Below, piece after piece: positions 5,871 to 35,723 of a stretch of 64,000 bases of DNA. The notes below the pieces were generated by a model. The model was not told where the DNA came from. It searched no databases and saw only the letters and a program-made list of their open reading frames with translations. Origin of the DNA: Mustelus asterias (taxonomy: Eukaryota); assembly GCF_964213995.1 (NCBI RefSeq), contig NC_135821.1, forward strand, positions 78,492,001 through 78,556,000. The letters run 5' to 3'. Positions within the stretch are counted from its first letter, which is position 1; the number at the start of each line of letters is the position of its first letter. The position numbers and the translations under genes were made by a program.

Positions 5871-6647
5871 TTAACATATAGAAGTGTGATCTGAACTGCT
5901 GGATTGGTCATCATCAAATTTTGCTATGCTGATGTTTGAGGATTTAAGTGCAACTGTTGTTCTTTTGTCCTGTTCATTGCTTTCCGTTGCGGAAGCCAAG
6001 CTTCGCTTCCAATGCATAATGCAGTACTTTACAGACAAATAGCACAATTCAGCAATATTTAGCAAGATGCACACAGCTGAAGTCACTAACATAAAAACAG
6101 TAAAAACTGTTTTTTCCGTTGGCCTGGAAATGAAGCAATCCACAGTGTTAGGACAGGGATATTCACTGCATTTGACAAGTCTGAGCATCTTGTAGCCTTC
6201 ATAAATCCAATAAAATAAATACATAAAGACAACTTCAAACGACATTTTGAAGAAAATGCTAACCAAGTAAGTTCGAAGAAGGGGGGCATCGATTTTTACT
6301 TTCTGCAAACCTGCATTCTGACTAAAGATTTTGATATTCTTCTTGCATTTTTTCCTTTGATAAATGTGCATACCAATGAGAAATGATGGAATGGACACAA
6401 AGAGGAGCTGGAAAACCCACAGCCTGATGTGGGAGATGGGGAAGAAATGATCGTAGCACACATTCCTGCAACCAGGCTGCTGTGTGTTGCACACAAAGTC
6501 ACTCTGTTCATCTCCCCAGACAGTCTCAGCTGCCACCACCAAGATCAAGATACGGAAAATGAATATGACTGCGATCCATACTTTCCCCAGGGACGTTGAA
6601 TATTTGTTGACCCCATTCAGCAGAGAATGAAGGAAATACCATCCCAT
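5871..6647 (-). CDS. Beta-type connexin copy A, 258 aa, single coding exon
   Basis: [18 protein letters not shown]1 C-x6-C-x3-C, EL2 C-x4-C-x5-C and FISRPTEK motifs. Short cytoplasmic loop and tail, as in the beta class. Acceptor (tgtttatttctag) ends at 6659, 11 nt before the ATG. Exact GJB orthology cannot be resolved by eye. Confidence 0.96.
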
Positions 6648-7669
6648 TCTTGATCAGTCTAGAAATAAACAGCACCGGTTACTTTACTACAGCAGGAAGT
6701 CTAGAATTTATCTACTGATCATTTAAAATTTTGCACATCCGCGCACTTCCTGGTCAACTTCTAGTGATGATTTTTGGCCACACATTTATGTCAGTATTCA
6801 GCAGTGAAGCTACCACGTCTAACATTTACAACAGAAATCCTGTATGCAAACAGTTTACTGTCACAATGTTGCTGCAGACTCTGGCTGGTAGGTCGCACTG
6901 TGGAACACATTTCTTTAAATCATGGCTACTGCCTGTGGTCTGTTGACCGGTGAATCATTCTGTTGACAGTATGAAGATGAAGATCATGCCCAAAGCTTTC
7001 TGCATTGTGAATTTCCGATTTCTATAGGAACTAACAAATGCCTCTGCAGGAAAATGTGGATGTTATTTACATGGACAGAGGTTAGAAAGGGAGCAGAGAG
7101 ATGAGAGTCATGTCTTCAACCGTATTCTCTCAACATCTCCTGCTACACCATCTTGTTAGGATTGTGAGTAAACTGCTCTCTTTATCAGTGAGAGGTTTGA
7201 GCACAAAATCTGAGTAAGAAAATAAAGGTAATATTCTCTGTAAGTACCCGAAAGACATCTGTAGCATAAAAATTACAACTGTTAGCTGGAACATAACTCA
7301 GTCCGAATATATACCTGGTCTCTATTTAATATGTCTATCTCTCTTTAACTTTCACAGTTCTTCCCTCAGGAATCTATGATTATTTTAGCATAATTCACAA
7401 TGCAAAAATATATTTATCTTTCCAGCGTCGTACTCCTGCAGCTGATAATTTTTGCTGGGTATTTGTCCATAGGAAAATTGGCACCCCCCAGTTCCATACC
7501 CAAATGATCATTTCCCATGTACGCATCAGCAAACTGTTTGATTTGTGCAGTCAAATCAGCACAAGATTGTGAATTTTCTGTACAATGTTATCATTATATT
7601 TAATTTTAAAGACAAGGTAAATAACTGTTTAAATGATACAAGCAGCAACAAATTCATTGTGATGTTTCC

Positions 7670-13654: not shown

Positions 13655-14985
13655 CTCGGGAGGATTTAAACTAGTTTGGCAGGAGGGTGGGATCCAAAGC
13701 AGTAGGGAGACAGAAGAGAAGTTTGAGGACAGTGCAGAAATTAAAGAGAGCACATTAAGTCGTAAAGGCAGTGTCAGTAATCCTAGTACCAGACAGATCA
13801 GGCAAAGGAAAGACAGAGAGCAAGGGAAGTCCAGATTAAACTGTGTTTATTTCAATGCAAGAGGCTTGACGGGCAAGGCAGATGAACTCAGGCCATGGAT
13901 GGGTACATGGGACTGGGATATTATAGCAATTACTGAAACATGGCTAAGGGAGGGACAGGACTGGCAGCTCAATGTTCCAGGGTACAGATGCTGTAGGAAA
14001 GATAGAACAGGAGATAAGAGAGGAGGGGGAGTTGCATTTTTGATTAGGGAAAGCATCACGGCCGTACTGAGAGGGGATATATCCGAGGGTTTGGCCACTG
14101 AGTTTATATGGGTAGAACTGAGAAATAAGAAGGGGGAAACCACTTTGATAGGGTTGTACTATAGGCCTCCAAATAGTCGGTGGGAAATTGAGGAGCAAAT
14201 CTATAAGGAGATTACAGATAGCTCCAAGAAAAATAGGATGGTAATAGAAGGGGATTTTAACCTTCCCAACATTGACTGGGATAACTATAGTATTAGAGGG
14301 TTGGATGGAGAGAAATTTGTTGAGTGCATTCAGGAGGAATTTCTCATTCAGTATGTGGATGGCCCGACTAGAGAGGGGGCAAAACTTGACCTCCTCTTGG
14401 GAAATAAGGAAGGGCAAGTGACAGAAGTGTTAGCGAGGGATCACTTTGGGACCAGTGACCATAATTCTATTAGTTTTAAGATAGCCATGGAGAATGATAG
14501 GTCTGGCCCAAAAGTTAAAATTCTAAATTGGGGCAAGGCCAATTTTGATGGTATCAGGCAGGAACTTTCAAAAGTTAATTGGGGGAGTCTGTTGGAAGGC
14601 AAAGGGATGTCTGGTAAGTGGGAGGCTTTCAAAAGTGTGTTAACCGGGGTTCAGGGTAAGCACATTCTTCTTGGAGTGAAGGGCAAGGCTGGCAGAAGTA
14701 GGGAACCCTGGATGACTCAGATAATTGTCCAGAGGGGCAATTTTTTCACACAGAGCGTGCTGAGTGTCTGGAACAAGCTGCCAGAGATCGTAGTAGAGGC
14801 GGGTACAATTTTGTCTTTTAAAAAGCATTTAGACAGTTACATGGGTATGATGGGTATAGAGGGATATGGGCCAAATGTGGGCAATTGGGATTAGCTTCGG
14901 GGTTTTAAAAAAAAGGGCAGCATGGACAGGTTGGGCTGAAGGGCCTGTTTCCATGCTGTAAACCTCTATGACTCTATGCCTCTAT
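13655..14985 (+). mobile_element. Internally deleted CR1: ORF1 end, APE endonuclease, joined in frame to the ORF2 C-terminus (no RT)
   Basis: CVYFNARG, AITETWL, YYRPP, GDFN and SDHN APE motifs. Junction near 14720 jumps to QRGNFFTQSVLSVWNKLP. (ACTCTATG)-type tail. Confidence 0.92.
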
Positions 14986-15404: not shown

Positions 15405-16442
15405 CATCAGGTGTGAATGTTTGAATGGTGCACACACCAGGGAGCATACAGGGGGCAGACACTAGCTTCAGGGAGGTGGTCACACCATAGGTCCAGATAG
15501 GTAGATGGGGGACCACCAGGAGAAGCAGGCGCGTAAGGCAGGAGTCTCCTGTGACTATTCGCCTCTCAAACAGGTATACCGTTTGGATACTGTTGGGGGG
15601 AGATTTCTCGGGGGAAAATACCAGCAGCAACCAGGCCTGTGGCACCACAACTGGTTCTGCTGTAGAACAGGATCGGGCTAAGTCCAAGTGAGTGATAGTA
15701 GTAGGAGACTCAATAGTCAGGGGCATGTCTGTGGCCATGTGTGTCAGGGTCCTGGATGTCTCTGAGCAGGTACAGGGCAATCTGAAACAGGAGGGTAAGC
15801 AGACAGATGTTATTGTCCACATTGGCACTAATGTCATTGGCAGAGGGAAGAGATCCTGCAAAGACAATTCAGGGAGTTGGGTAGGGAGCTAAAAGGCAGG
15901 ACCTCTAGAAATCTTAGAATTACTCCCTGTGCCATCTACTCGTAAGGCTTGGAAGAGGGAGATAGTACAATTGAACATGTGGCTAAAGAGCTGGTGTAGG
16001 AGGGAGGGCTTTAGATAAATGGATCATTGGGATGTCTTCTGGGGAAGGTGGGACCTGTACAAGAAGGACGGGTTGCACATGAACTGGAGGGGCACCAATA
16101 CCCTGGATGGGAGGTTTGCTAGTGCTGTTCGGGAGAGTTTAAACTCGTGTGGCGGGGGTGCGAACCGGAACAGCAAGACTGTAAGTGTAGGGGCCAGGAA
16201 AAAAAGTGAGACTGAGATAAACATAGCACAGAGTAAGAGCCGGCAGAGGGAAGTCACAGGGCTCAGCGGGATTGGAGATCTGGAATGCGTTTGCTCCAAT
16301 ACAAGAAGTTTAACAGGTAAAACTGATGAACTGAGAGCCTGGATTACTGCATGGTTTAGTTAGGGCATCGTGATCGGCACAGGCTTGGAGGGCTGAAGGG
16401 CCTGTTCCTGTGCTGTACTTTTCTTTGCTCTTTGTTCTTTAT
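15405..16442 (+). mobile_element. Internally deleted, decayed CR1: ORF1 esterase remnants and start of APE joined to the tail
   Basis: IVVGDSIVRG, VIVHIGTN and LYKKDGLH SGNH motifs, then LECVCSNTRSLTGKTDEL, then the 3' UTR with a (CTTTGTT)n tail. Confidence 0.88.
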
Positions 16443-30010: not shown

Positions 30011-31096
30011 CGACTCCAGATCTGCTACTTTGCAAGCTCTAACTCCTCATCTGATTCTATCACTTCCTCGGGTCCAGTCCCCCAACTCCAATTCTAATTT
30101 TGGGCAAAAGTAGCACTGTTCGTTCAATCTCTTTACTCCATCTACCCTGAACTCCTCTCAAGCTCTGTATAGTTCTGGCATCGAACACCGCATTTGCAGC
30201 ACCTTCAGGTAGAAAATTCCTCCTGTGACATTGCCTCGTGGCAGAAAGCAGGTTAGCCTCCTCCTCTTCTCCCTCAGTAGAACAAGTATAACGACACCCA
30301 AAGGACTGCATAAAGGAACCACGATAAATTAGAATTCATCCCAATGCCCTGTTCTCATTATTGATGAGGCAATCTTACAGCCAACTGTAAAATTAAGCTC
30401 CAAAACAGTTGGAGTAAATAAAGGATATCCTATGACTGGTCTTTCAAAAGACACTGATAAGTGGCTGTTGTACAGTTTAATATGATTTTATTTGAAGCTA
30501 GTTTGCATGTCCAATAGAAATGTCTTGGCTTCTTTGCTCATCAGCTTTTTTTATTCATTCGTGGGACATGGGCGTCGTTGGTTGGCCAGCATTTATTGCC
30601 CATCCCTAGTTGCCCGAGGGCAGTTGAGAGTCAACCACGTTGCTGTGGCTCTGGAGTCACATGTAGGCCAGACCAAGTCAGGACAGCGGATTTCCTTCCC
30701 TAAAGGGACATTAGTGAACCAGATGGGTTTTTTTGACAATCGACAATGGTTTCATGATCATCAGTAGATTCTTAATTCCAGATATTTTTTATTGAAATCA
30801 AATTCCACCATCTGCCGTGGCGGGATTTGAACCTGGGTCCCCAGAACATTAGTTGAGTTTCTGGATTAATAGACTGGCGATAATACCACTAGGTCATCTG
30901 CTCCCCCTGAGTTGTTATTAATAGATAGATTTTACAATCAGAATCACAGAGAATTGTTACAGAGCAGGTGTCCATTCAGCCCATCATGTCTGTACCAGCT
31001 CTCTAAATGAGCAATTTACCAACAAAGAACAAAGAACAATACAGCACAGGAACAGGCCCTTCGGCCCTCCAAGCCCGTGCCACTCCCTGGTCCAAA

Positions 31097-34028
31097 CTAG
31101 ACCATTCTTTTGTATCCCTCCATTCCCACTCCGTTCATATGGCTGTCTAGATAAGTCTTAAACGTTCCCAGTGTGTCTGCCTCCACCACCTTGCCTGGCA
31201 GCGCACTCCAGGCCCCCACCACCCTCTGTGTAAAATATGTCCGTCTGATATCCGTGTTAAACCTCCCCCCCTTCACCTTGAACCTATGACCCCTCGTGAA
31301 CGTCACCACCGACCTGGGGAAAAGCTTCCCACTGTTCACCCTATCTATGCCTTTCATAATTTTATACACCTCTATTAAGTCTCCCCTCATCCTCTGACTT
31401 TCCAGGGAGAACAACCCCAGTTTACCCAATCTCTCCTCATAACTAAGTCCCTCCATACCAGGTAACATCCTGGTTAACCTCCTCTGTACTCTCTCCAAAG
31501 CCTCCACGTCCTTCTGGTAGTATGGCGACCAGAACTGGACGCAGTATTCCAGATGCGGCCGAACCAACGTTCTATACATCTGCAACATCAGACCCCAACT
31601 TTTATACTCTATGCCCCGTCCTATAAAGGCAAGCATGCCATATGCCTTCTTCACCACCTTCTCCACCTGTGACATCACTTTCAAGGATCTGTGGACTTGC
31701 ACACCCAGGTCCCTCTGCGTATCTACACCCTTTATGGTTCTGCCATTTATCATATAGCTCCTCCCTACATTATTTCTACCAAAATGCATCACTTCGCATT
31801 TATCAGGATTGAACTCCATCTGCCATTTCTTTGCCCAAATTTCCAGCCTATCTATATCCTTCTGTAGCTTCTGACAATGCTCCTCACTATCTGCAAGTCC
31901 TGCCAATTTTGTGTCGTCCGCAAACTTACTGATCACCCCAGTTACACCTTCTTCCAGATCATTTATATAAATCACAAACAGCAGAGGTCCCAATACAGAG
32001 CCCTGCGGAACACCACTAGTCACAGGCCTCCAGCCGGAAAAAGACCCTTCCACTACCACCCTCTGTCTTCTGTGACCAAGCCAGTTCTCCACCCATCTAG
32101 CCACCTCCCCCTTTATCCTAAGAGATCCAACCTTTTTCACCAGCCTACCATGAGGGACTTTGTCAAACGCTTTACTAAAGTCCATATAGACGACATCCAC
32201 GGCCCTTCCCTCGTCAACCATTTTGGTCACTTCTTCAAAAAACTCCACCAGGTTAGTGAGGCATGACCTCCCTCTCACAAAACCATGCTGACTATCGTTA
32301 ATGAGTTTATTCCTTTCTAAATGCGCATACATCCGATCTCTAAGAATCTTCTCCAACAACTTCCCCACCACGGACGTCAAGCTCACCGGCCTATAATTAC
32401 CCGGGTTATCCTTCCCACCCTTCTTAAATAACGGGACCACTTTAGCTATCCTCCAATCCTCTGGGACCTCACCTGCGTCCAGTGACGAGACAAAGATTTG
32501 CGTCAGAGGCCCAGCGATTTCATCTCTCGTCTCCCTGAGCAGCCTTGGATAGATTCCATCAGGCCCTGGGGATTTGTCAGTCTTTAAATTCTCTCACAAA
32601 CCTAACACTTCCTCCTTTGTAATGGAGATTTTCTCCAACGGTTCAACACTCCCCTCCGAGACACTCCCAGTCAACACATCCCTCTCCTTTGTGAATACCG
32701 ACGCAAAGTATTCATTTAGGATCTCCCCTACTTCTTTGGGCTCCAAGCATATTTCCCCACTTTTGTCCCTGAGAGGTCCGATTTTTTCCCTGACAACCCT
32801 TTTGTTCCTAACGTATGAATAAAATGCCTTGGGATTCTCCTTAATCCTGTCTGCCAAGAACATTTCGTGACCCCTTTTTGCTCTTCTAATTCTCCGTTTG
32901 AGTTCTTTCCTACTTTCTTTGTACTCCTCCAGGGCTCCCTCCGTTTTTAGCTGCCTGGACCTACCATACGCCTCTCTTTTCTTTTTGACCAGTCCCTCAA
33001 TTTCCCTGGTTATCCACGGTTCTCGAATCCTACCCCTCCTATCCTTTTTAAACAGGCACATGCCTGTCCTGTAGCCCTAACAACTGTTCCTTAAAAGACT
33101 CCCACTTGCCAGATGTGGATTTACCCTCAAACAGCCCCTCCCAATCAAGAGCTGCCAATTTCTGCCTAATCCCACTAAAGTTAGCCTTCCCCCAATCCAA
33201 CACCTTACCCTTGGGACACCACTCATCCTTTTCCATCACTATCCTAAAGCTAACAGAATTGTGGTCACTATTTGCCACATGTTCCCCTACCGAAACTTTG
33301 AAGACCTGACCGGGCTCATTCCCCAGTACTAGGTCCAGTATAGCCCCCTCTCTAGTCGGGCTATCTACATATTGTTCCAAAGAACCCTCCTGTACGCATT
33401 TTACAAATTCCACCCCATTCAGAGTCCCTGCTCTCAGCGATTTCCAGTCAATACCAGGGAAATTGAAGTCTCCCACTACAACAACCCTATTTTTCCTGCA
33501 CCTATCCAGTATCTCCTGACATATCCGTTCTTCCACTTCCCTTGGGCTGTTGGGGGGCCTGTAGTACACCCCCAACATAGTGACTGCGCCCTTCCTGTTT
33601 CTAAGCTCCACCCAGAGTGACTCGTTACACGACCCCTCTGAATTGTCCTCCCTCTGCACCGCTGTAATATGCTCTCCAACTAATACTGCCACTCCCCCAC
33701 CTCTTTTGGCCCCTCCTCTGTCTCGCCTAAAACACTTGTACCCCGGAATATTCAGCTGCCAGTCCTGTCCCTCTTTCAACCAAGTCTCTGTCACCGCAAC
33801 CACATCCAAATTCCTCGTGAGCATTAAGGCCCTAAGTTCATCTGTCTTACCTGCTACGCTCCTTGCATTGAAGTATAAGCACTCCAGACCTCCAGGCCCA
33901 GTGAGGTCATCCTCCCCCAGAGTGCTCTTCTTCTTTGCCAGCCTTGTCCCAGCCCCAAGCTCGTCCCCAGCCTCTACACTTGTAGACCTAATATTTTGAT
34001 CCCCTCCCCCCTGCCATACTAGTTTAAA
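31097..34028 (-). pseudogene. CR1 ORF2 (APE endonuclease and reverse transcriptase); frameshift near 33050 and in-frame TGA at 32594-32596
   Basis: CLYFNARS, VTETWL, YYRPP, GDFN, SDHN; NYRPVSLTS, DFSKAFD, GVPQGSVLGP and FADD. Confidence 0.95.
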
Positions 34029-35039
34029 CCCCCCCGAACTGCACTAGCAAAACTCCCAGCCAGGATATTCGTGCCCTTCCAACTTAGTTGTGACCCGTCC
34101 TTCTTGTACAGGTGCCATCCTCTCCTGAAAACTTCCCATTGATCTAGGAAAATGAAGCCCTCCCTCCTGGACCAGTCCTTTAGCCAAGCATTCAATTTTA
34201 CTAACTCCCTATTCTTAGCCTCACTGGCACGAGGCATTGGGAGCAGCCCAGAGATGGCCACCCTGGAGGCCCTACGTTTTAGCCTATTTCCCAACTCCCT
34301 GAATTGCTCTCGTAGGATCCCCCTGCTCTTCCTATCTACGTCATTTGCACCAATGTGTACAATGACATCCGTTTCTTTATCTTCCCCTTTTAATATGCCT
34401 CCTATCCGCTCGGAGACATCCATGACCCCAGCACCAGGTAGGCAGACTACCATCCTGGAGTCCCGTTCGCACCCACAGAATCGCCTGTCCGTGCCTCTAA
34501 CCGACGCATCCCCCACCACTATTGCTCTCCTAACCCCTCTCTTTCCTTTCCGGGCCACAGAGCCTGACTGTGTGCCAGTGACCTGGTCACTGTGGCTTAC
34601 CCCTGGAGAGTCATCCTCCCCCACACTATCCAAAACAATATACTTGTTTTGGAGTGGGACAACCACAGGTGACCCCCTCCTCTAATTGCTCACTCCCCTC
34701 CCCTCTCACACCTGTCGCCGAGCCCTTCCTATTATGAGAGACAGCCACTGGAGTACTCTCTGGTACGTTACCCTTCTGACCTTTACTCCTCCTAACTGTG
34801 ACCCACGTGTCTTCCTCCCGATACCCCGGTGTAACTAGTTGCCTATAACTCATGTCAATTATTCTCTCATTCTCCCTGACTAGACCAAGGTCAGCAATCT
34901 GCAGCTCCAGTTCCGTGACACGGTCCCTCAGGAGCTGCAGTTCCACGCACCTGGCACAAATGTGAACCGCTGGGAGGCTAGGTGTTTCCAGGAACTCCCA
35001 CATCCCACACTGGAAGCACTGAACTGGCCTATCGCTCAT
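34019..35039 (-). pseudogene. CR1 ORF1 (Zn finger, coiled coil, SGNH/GDSL esterase), one frameshift near 34675
   Basis: CFQCGMW...CARC, VVGDAS, VIVHIGAND and LYKKDG; two overlapping ORF-track frames. Confidence 0.9.
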
Positions 35040-35099
35040 AGCTACCCTTATCCGATACAGGTTTGGATAAAAACTTACCTTGCCTCGCCCTTTCTGCCT

Positions 35100-35257
35100 A
35101 AGCCCTGTGAGCCAAAGCCCTTAAAGCTCACACTCTGCTTCCCACACACTCAAGCCCTGTGAGCCAAAGCCCTTAAAGCTCACACTCTGCTTCCCACACA
35201 CTCAAGCCCTGTGAGCCAAAGCCCTTAAAGCTCACACGCTGCTTCCCACACACTCTG
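35100..35257. repeat. Three tandem 52-bp repeats in the CR1 5' UTR
   Basis: Unit AAGCCCTGTGAGCCAAAGCCCTTAAAGCTCACACTCTGCTTCCCACACACTC, each with a TGTGAGC/GCTCACA hairpin. Confidence 0.95.
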
Positions 35258-35723
35258 CTGCCCGCTCCCGACGCTGCCCGCTGTATAGTGCGGCCGGCTT
35301 TTTATGCTCCAGTCGAACAAAGAGGTCGAAGCCCCCAGGTAACTGACTTTTATACTAAGAACTCAACCTACCAGAATCCCCTTCAGCTGACCTCACTTCC
35401 TTTAATTTAAAAGCTTGAAAAAAGCCCGCGAAACAAACAAGGAATACAATTAAATAAATAAATAAATCAGTACTTTGCTTACCCTCAGCACTCCTGCTAA
35501 GAATCTCTCCCTCAGTCCTGCTCCAGTCGAACAAAGAACAAAGACCAAGTACCATTTCTCCCTCCTCCTTCTCCCTCTAATGTGCAAATATTTTGAATAT
35601 AAAGCAATTAGTGACCATTATCCTTGGTAACAATTTGTCCAATATTGAAGCTTTCCTTTCACATCTCATAATGGTAATTTTAACAACATATTTCAGTTGT
35701 ACTCAGTCATGGCAAAAAACTAA

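Follow-up and report, generated by a model that had tools for sequence, protein, structure and literature searches.

How the second open reading frame (ORF2) of bicistronic long interspersed nuclear elements (LINEs) is translated is, to our knowledge, an open question that has been answered for L1 and SART1 only, the ORF2 product of SART1 reportedly being made as a separate protein. In Rous sarcoma virus and equine arteritis virus, which rely on -1 ribosomal frameshifting, a stop codon directly follows the slippery heptamer. The same arrangement is found at the ORF1/ORF2 junction of a CR1 LINE in a 64,000-nucleotide stretch of the Mustelus asterias genome (NC_135821.1, positions 78,492,001 to 78,556,000; hereafter the window, with positions counted from its first letter). 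Judged from sequence comparison, a programmed -1 frameshift yielding an ORF1-ORF2 fusion is the best explanation of this junction, and a likely one.

Among LINEs, a precedent is provided by the Dictyostelium elements TRE5-A and TRE3-A, both of which are said to depend on a -1 frameshift to translate ORF2 (PMC5911963). Like CR1, they are non-LTR elements (lacking long terminal repeats) with two ORFs and an APE endonuclease and reverse transcriptase (RT), but they belong to another clade and another host and carry an unrelated ORF1. For the LINEs of Paramecium, +1 shifting, reinitiation or readthrough has been suggested (PMC5405496). SART1 and L1 share with CR1 a bicistronic RNA, and their ORF2 translation depends on that of ORF1 (PMC2881922). 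CR1 differs from both in its fixed slippery heptamer and mostly absent AUG, SART1 and L1 giving a separate ORF2 protein.

The retroviral gag-pol and nidoviral ORF1a/1b junctions resemble that of CR1 in their -1 phase, with a structural protein upstream and a polymerase downstream. The slip site of infectious bronchitis virus, U_UUA_AAC, is identical to the CR1 heptamer and is listed as one of the heptamers on which mammalian ribosomes shift most readily (PMC5009743). Unlike these viral sites, CR1 shows neither a pseudoknot nor a hairpin conserved 5-9 nt downstream, and it has no protease to act on a fusion. A closer parallel in spacing is the nsp2 frameshift in the virus that causes porcine reproductive and respiratory syndrome (PRRSV), where nsp1beta and PCBP bind a CCCANCUCC motif located 11 nt 3' from the shift site (PMC5009743). 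The CR1 G run likewise begins at nt 11, the same spacing as this single-stranded, low-complexity motif. The two differ in that the PRRSV motif is C-rich and the CR1 motif G-rich, in their slip sites, in the -2/-1 outcome of PRRSV, and in the binding protein, which for CR1 is hypothetical. The CR1 signal is, on its letters, a canonical -1 heptamer layout with an atypical putative stimulator.

On the minus strand of the window, the junction reads GGT TTA AAC TAG (34030-34019). The heptamer T_TTA_AAC (U_UUA_AAC in RNA, 34022..34028) stands in the X_XXY_YYZ phase, and the ORF1 stop codon (34019..34021) lies directly 3' of it, as the preliminary description of this DNA had read them; the stop is TAG here, other families having TAA or TGA. 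The frame upstream terminates in ...SFASAVRGGLN*. The -1 frame, claimed to be open and to be that of ORF2, is both: it spans 33048-34043 on the minus strand (FKLVWQGGGDQNIR...GLECLYFNARSVAGKTDELRALM) and continues as FKLVWQGGGDQ... into the APE endonuclease, closed upstream by a stop at 34046-34044, five codons before the heptamer. Between the heptamer and the endonuclease lies an ORF2-frame linker (33888..34028) of 47 codons in this copy, over which the -1 frame alone is open. The APE domain follows at 33048..33887 with its YFNARS motif at ~33875-33858, and the Pfam match to Exo_endo_phos (PF03372) begins at residue 57 of the -1 frame. The first ORF2 ATG (33824) was correctly placed past YFNARS; its Met is residue 74, 17 residues inside the Pfam match, and four out-of-frame ATGs, which open ORFs of 4-18 codons, precede it. 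The conserved G run GGGGGGAGGGG (34001..34011), a candidate stimulator, begins at nt 11 after the heptamer. G tracts had been described as starting 6 nt after the heptamer: a GG does stand at 6 nt, whereas the conserved run starts only at nt 11 (34011). The 10-mer TTTAAACTAG occurs exactly twice in the window, both times at a CR1 junction (34019-28 on the minus strand and 13665-74 on the plus strand); with one mismatch, 13 matches were found against 5.94 expected.

A second in-phase slippery heptamer, G_GGU_UUA (34031-34025, minus strand), overlaps U_UUA_AAC in the families that bear GGT. The third letter of codon -4, where G_GGU_UUA starts, is G in 18 of 18 families, even where this heptamer is imperfect.

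Conservation of the junction was examined across the genome. Loci were gathered by ORF1 protein and Pfam searches and from evenly spaced 10-kb stretches; because the latter yielded just 2 junctions in 200 kb, sampling was changed to protein-anchored searches, which favour well-preserved copies. Each junction was located independently of the motif, by an esterase anchor (excluding the last 12 residues of ORF1) and an APE anchor. From 177 ORF1 anchors, 159 loci had both anchors, giving 150 distinct sequences in 23 clusters at 85%, treated here as families. TTTAAAC is present in 145 of the 150 distinct junctions (23 families). The five exceptions are single-base changes, three of them in families that otherwise keep the motif and two in single-copy families. 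Among near-identical sister copies of the window element, 29 of 30 retain heptamer and stop, the remaining one (L012) having TCG in place of the stop. This agreement, in 29/30 sister copies and 145/150 junctions, rules out a copy-specific mutation or an assembly error.

Conservation at synonymous sites was assessed for 18 families placed on a tree (105 indel-free copies, 40-94% DNA identity), excluding five clusters with an indel or stop within the last 41 codons. The three third positions within the heptamer have undergone 1, 0 and 0 changes on this tree, the single change falling in a single-copy cluster, and none of the 80 control third positions is invariant (34 in ORF1, mean 3.9 changes; 46 in APE, mean 5.5). 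The last Leu codon is TTA in all 18 families, against 20 of 171 Leu codons elsewhere, and the last Asn codon is AAC in all 18, against 34 of 101. The first U comes from a codon that varies among seven residues, yet ends in T in 17 of the 18 families; the ORF1 stop in this set is TAG or TAA. These letters could in principle be fixed by the proteins alone, if ORF1 needed its terminal Leu-Asn and an ORF2 starting a short way upstream needed Phe-Lys-Leu, so that double coding held both frames in place. Leu-Asn does end ORF1 in nearly all homologues that reach that far, and synonymous change is indeed held down where frames overlap. A way into the -1 frame would still be required, however, since in three families this frame closes one codon before the heptamer and no initiator codon lies between, and the residues past Phe-Lys-Leu belong to a hypervariable linker. 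Protein-level constraint by itself is thus an extremely unlikely account.

The motif extends well beyond sharks. TTTAAAC followed by TAG, TAA or TGA matches 23 times in the supplement of PMC13343379, where all three stop codons occur; its consensus table covers the first ~400 letters of each row, so that the junctions of full-length consensuses lie outside it and the count has no denominator. Judged by eye, 18 of the 23 matches, under 12 species labels, stand where an esterase ORF1 ends or immediately ahead of the start of APE. The matching rows are AllMis (2), CroPor (3), PogVit, AquCat, LatCha, AmiCal, AldAff (labelled Crack), CalMil, HypSab, PriPec, ScyCan (2) and SquAca (3). We take these labels to denote, in that order, alligator, crocodile, bearded dragon, bullfrog, coelacanth, bowfin, halosaur, chimaera, stingray, sawfish, catshark and dogfish. 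Six synonymous Leu-Asn-TAG variants gave 14 matches in the same supplement, none of the 14 at a CR1 junction. Among 20 crocodilian CR1 rows (in two parts), the motif is present in all four that contain the whole junction, and a fifth ends inside it at ...GCTTT. In the supplementary files searched for PMC4316615 and PMC2817409, CR1 is represented by its 3' parts alone, with TTTAAAC matches near the end of ORF2 in a non-slip phase, and scans of metagenome, prokaryote-genome and viral contig collections for the CR1 of other hosts returned nothing usable. The cross-vertebrate comparison included no bird, turtle or mammal junction. The alignment proposed in the preliminary description has accordingly been carried out, and heptamer and phase are conserved, without synonymous change, in 18 families of the shark genome and in the consensuses of 12 other vertebrates. 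Conservation of the heptamer at the nucleotide level exceeds protein constraint both within the genome and across vertebrates. The cassette of U_UUA_AAC, stop codon and G run is a real, deeply conserved signal of the recoding type.

The linker behind the cassette shows where the ORF2 frame begins. Across families, between 120 and 354 nt separate the heptamer from APE, but in each of the six families represented by five or more copies the modal length is divisible by three (135-354 nt). Over 5112 linker codons from the 99 in-phase copies, only 14 stops fall in the ORF2 frame, compared with 272 and 462 in the other two. In family 20, the first in-frame Met is at codon 74, and the preceding 70 codons are stop-free in 6 of 7 copies, the other frames holding 6-10 stops each over this stretch. 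Upstream, the ORF2 frame closes one codon before the heptamer in families 20, 22 and 23, and five codons before it in most copies of the large families; an upstream ATG in this frame is absent as a rule. Because the frame is stop-free downstream yet closed 1-5 codons upstream, entry into ORF2 must take place at or just after the heptamer, and selection keeps the ORF2 frame free of stops from the heptamer on. The claimed absence of an AUG at the junction holds as a rule in the largest families; it is not universal, as four families have CTA ATG and family 20 has its Met at codon 74.

The G run is the second constant of the junction. All 18 families have G at nt 11 past the heptamer, and GGGG fills nt 11-14 in 126 of 145 copies. 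The spacer before GGGGG is 10 nt in the alligator, crocodile, sawfish and catshark consensus rows and 7 nt in the gap-riddled frog and coelacanth rows. The run doubles as coding sequence, specifying G-[G/D/E]-G in the ORF2 frame, and we infer that it may act as the stimulator.

The Gag-Pol-like fusion proposed in the preliminary description is supported by this comparative test; the mechanism itself, as it may be reconstructed from the letters, would run as follows. Ribosomes would pause under the combined effect of the adjacent stop codon and the G run. The tRNA-Leu and tRNA-Asn would then move from UUA AAC onto UUU AAA, giving the transframe peptide ...GGLN-LVWQ.... A minority of ribosomes would shift in this way and produce a fusion of ORF1, linker, endonuclease and RT of ~1,300 residues. 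The 10-nt spacing of the G run would suit a protein-bound or long-range stimulator more than a local hairpin, and the hypervariable linker, rich in G, S, K, R and E, would tether the endonuclease to the esterase.

Several observations weigh against a frameshift. A stimulator had been expected ~5-9 nt downstream of the heptamer, but folding of 13 families (pairs up to ~1.3 kb; pseudoknots and longer-range pairs left out) revealed no conserved stem-loop or pseudoknot stem there (z -1.2 to +1.3; -0.88 for the window junction), and a 10-nt spacer separates the G run from the slip site. Of the 13 families, only some are predicted to form a two-tier quadruplex; quadruplexes stimulate shifting in synthetic constructs, with natural use described as not known (PMC5009743). 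No common long-range partner of the G run was found either, the best duplexes differing by family (a C run encoding YRPP in some). Local RNA structure as the stimulator is therefore unsupported, no helix being shared by the 13 families. The element encodes no protease that would release ORF2 from a fusion. Of the 145 heptamer-bearing copies, 46 have ORF2 out of phase (99 in phase), which is read as decay after insertion. The family counts are not independent draws because the families are related. A weak test, a search for longer fused proteins, returned three unrelated APE-RT proteins. Start codons also count on this side: an in-frame UAAUG overlapping the stop occurs in 4 of the 21 heptamer-bearing families (7 of 145 copies), several further families have a Met in the linker, and the absence of an AUG alone proves nothing, because human L1 tolerates loss of its ORF2 AUG (PMC1965478). 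The last such point is a joined contig, considered below with splicing.

These start codons raise the alternative of termination-reinitiation of the SART1 or L1 kind, in which ribosomes would stop at the end of ORF1 and restart in the -1 frame, at UAAUG or a nearby non-AUG codon, to make a free ORF2 protein, the conserved letters being a context for termination and restart. The UAAUG stop-start of the four families (CTA ATG) lies in the ORF2 frame as this route predicts, and both the dependence of ORF2 on ORF1 translation in SART1 and L1 (PMC2881922) and the replaceable ORF2 AUG of L1 (PMC1965478) fit it. UAAUG is, however, missing from the window family and from 17 of the 21 heptamer-bearing families; at its place the other families, the four largest included, have GTA, GTT, GAA, GAT, AAT, ATA or ATT. 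No near-cognate start is conserved at the beginning of APE, where the codon is CTG, TTG, TTA, CTA, ATA or ATG. Reinitiation also leaves unexplained why an exact, in-phase slippery heptamer resists all synonymous change next to a stop codon that varies, and it is considered unlikely.

A spliced subgenomic mRNA could instead drop ORF1 and have ORF2 translated alone, the junction letters and G run serving as splicing signals. The contig mentioned above comes from run X3, which is from another organism, whose status as RNA is a guess and whose contigs are uninformative on expression level. It (depth 62, 31 letters on the short side) joins 35084 to 34038, 10 nt upstream of the heptamer. An unspliced X3 contig reads GAG|GTTAGT on the donor side, which makes a GT-AG splice plausible in that organism; 23 of 54 copies also have a donor-like GTRAGT ahead of ORF1, and AG|GTAAGT is present in the 5' untranslated regions (UTRs) of crocodilian (alligator, crocodile) elements. 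On the acceptor side, however, an AG 10 nt upstream is found in just 2 of 21 families, the best-shared AG position reaches at most 14 of 21, no pyrimidine tract exceeds 60%, and the AG of the stop codon is absent from TAA and TGA families. Neither donor would give the joined RNA an in-frame ATG, the joint appeared in 1 of the 7 runs examined, and spliced, re-integrated copies were found at 0 of 60 genomic loci. The X3 joint is read as cryptic use of a 5' UTR donor, and splicing as the route to ORF2 is very improbable.

The window element itself is a near full-length CR1 copy (31020..35537, minus strand), its 5' end set by the furthest match to sister copies and its 3' end by GTTCTTT repeats. 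It belongs to a young, high-copy family with at least 2824 candidate copies in the genome, but is itself dead, ORF1 and ORF2 each being broken. ORF1 (34019..35039) comprises a CxxC zinc finger, a coiled coil and an SGNH esterase, and is split into two frames at a G run near 34673, where other sequencing runs are one letter shorter. Its esterase scores over the cut-off of Pfam Lipase_GDSL_2 (PF13472) and matches the solved LINE ORF1 esterase PDB 4c1b (E 2e-19); homologues in shark and ray proteomes are 52-54% identical. Downstream of the APE domain, the rest of ORF2 (31097..33076), with its reverse transcriptase (PF00078), is in two further pieces; Pfam domains over ORF2 are PF03372, PF14529 and PF00078. 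The 3' end consists of short tandem repeats (GTTCTTT), not poly(A). Shark and ray consensuses that bear the CR1 label in the PMC13343379 supplement have closely similar junctions, and the element is, by its domains and 3' repeats, with junction likeness instead of an RT tree, a CR1-clade LINE with an esterase ORF1.

The 5' UTR (35040..35537) carries three copies of a 52-nt tandem repeat (35100-35255) and a donor-like AAG|GTAAGT at 35079|35078. This near-perfect donor (AG|GTAAGT, 35079-35073, minus strand) lies ~40 nt ahead of the ORF1 ATG, which leaves too little room for a UTR intron; it may be a site where U1 binds to protect or regulate the RNA. Part of the 5' UTR (35311-35071) is ~92% identical in about half of 30 loci, yet their ORF1 and ORF2 are only ~65% identical; a 5' UTR has been exchanged between CR1 families (loci L197-L200, L203, L205, L206, L209, L210 and L218-L223). 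The sequence CTTTGTTCTTTGTT stands at both ends of the element (35543-35530 and 31034-31021, minus strand), as either a target duplication or the trace of insertion into the tail repeat of another CR1.

Two further CR1 junctions lie in the window. One, TTTAAACTAG at 13665..13674 (plus strand), is of another family with a 171-nt linker, in a copy 5'-truncated ~10 nt upstream of the heptamer (13655-13665); the other, TTTAAACTCG at 16138..16147 (plus strand), is decayed and belongs to an older copy of another family. The sole host gene noticed in the window is a connexin coding exon (5871-6653, minus strand; PF00029, E 3e-81). Elsewhere in the genome, locus L124 (G000:C12:51334000-51340000, minus strand) has gained one base in a G run ~45 nt upstream of the heptamer, which places ORF1 and ORF2 in one frame of 1290 codons; this is a mutation or a homopolymer error, and its layout matches that of the predicted fusion. 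A CR1 ORF1 protein (P0007) has been deposited as a Pseudomonas aeruginosa SGNH hydrolase, a likely case of host DNA contaminating a bacterial assembly.

No statement of a -1 frameshift for CR1 or any vertebrate LINE, and no report of a frameshift signal in CR1, was found in the literature; chicken and turtle CR1 papers of 1997-2001 lay outside the search, and an earlier mention is possible. The terms frameshift, overlap and start codon do not occur in the main text of PMC13343379, and CR1 does not occur in the first 300,000 characters of PMC5009743, one passage of which names HeT-A and TART as its only non-LTR elements.

CR1 is described as the dominant retrotransposon of most vertebrate species (PMC13343379). 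If its junction is a programmed -1 frameshift, the CR1 ORF2 protein would be an esterase-tethered fusion, supplied in cis at a fixed ratio. This would explain why annotated CR1 ORF2s are missing a usable AUG, and would alter both the definition of an active CR1 element and its reconstruction for retrotransposition assays. It would also add a case, with an unusual stimulator, to the very few conserved frameshift signals of vertebrate genomes. A broader and rather doubtful extension is that all jawed-vertebrate CR1s have made a Gag-Pol-like fusion for >400 million years through a structure-free cassette whose G run is bound by a trans-acting protein, either a host G-run binder or ORF1p. If this were true, the trans-bound CR1 cassette would define a novel class of frameshift stimulated by a protein, and would act as a switch through which hosts could control the transposon that dominates in most vertebrates.

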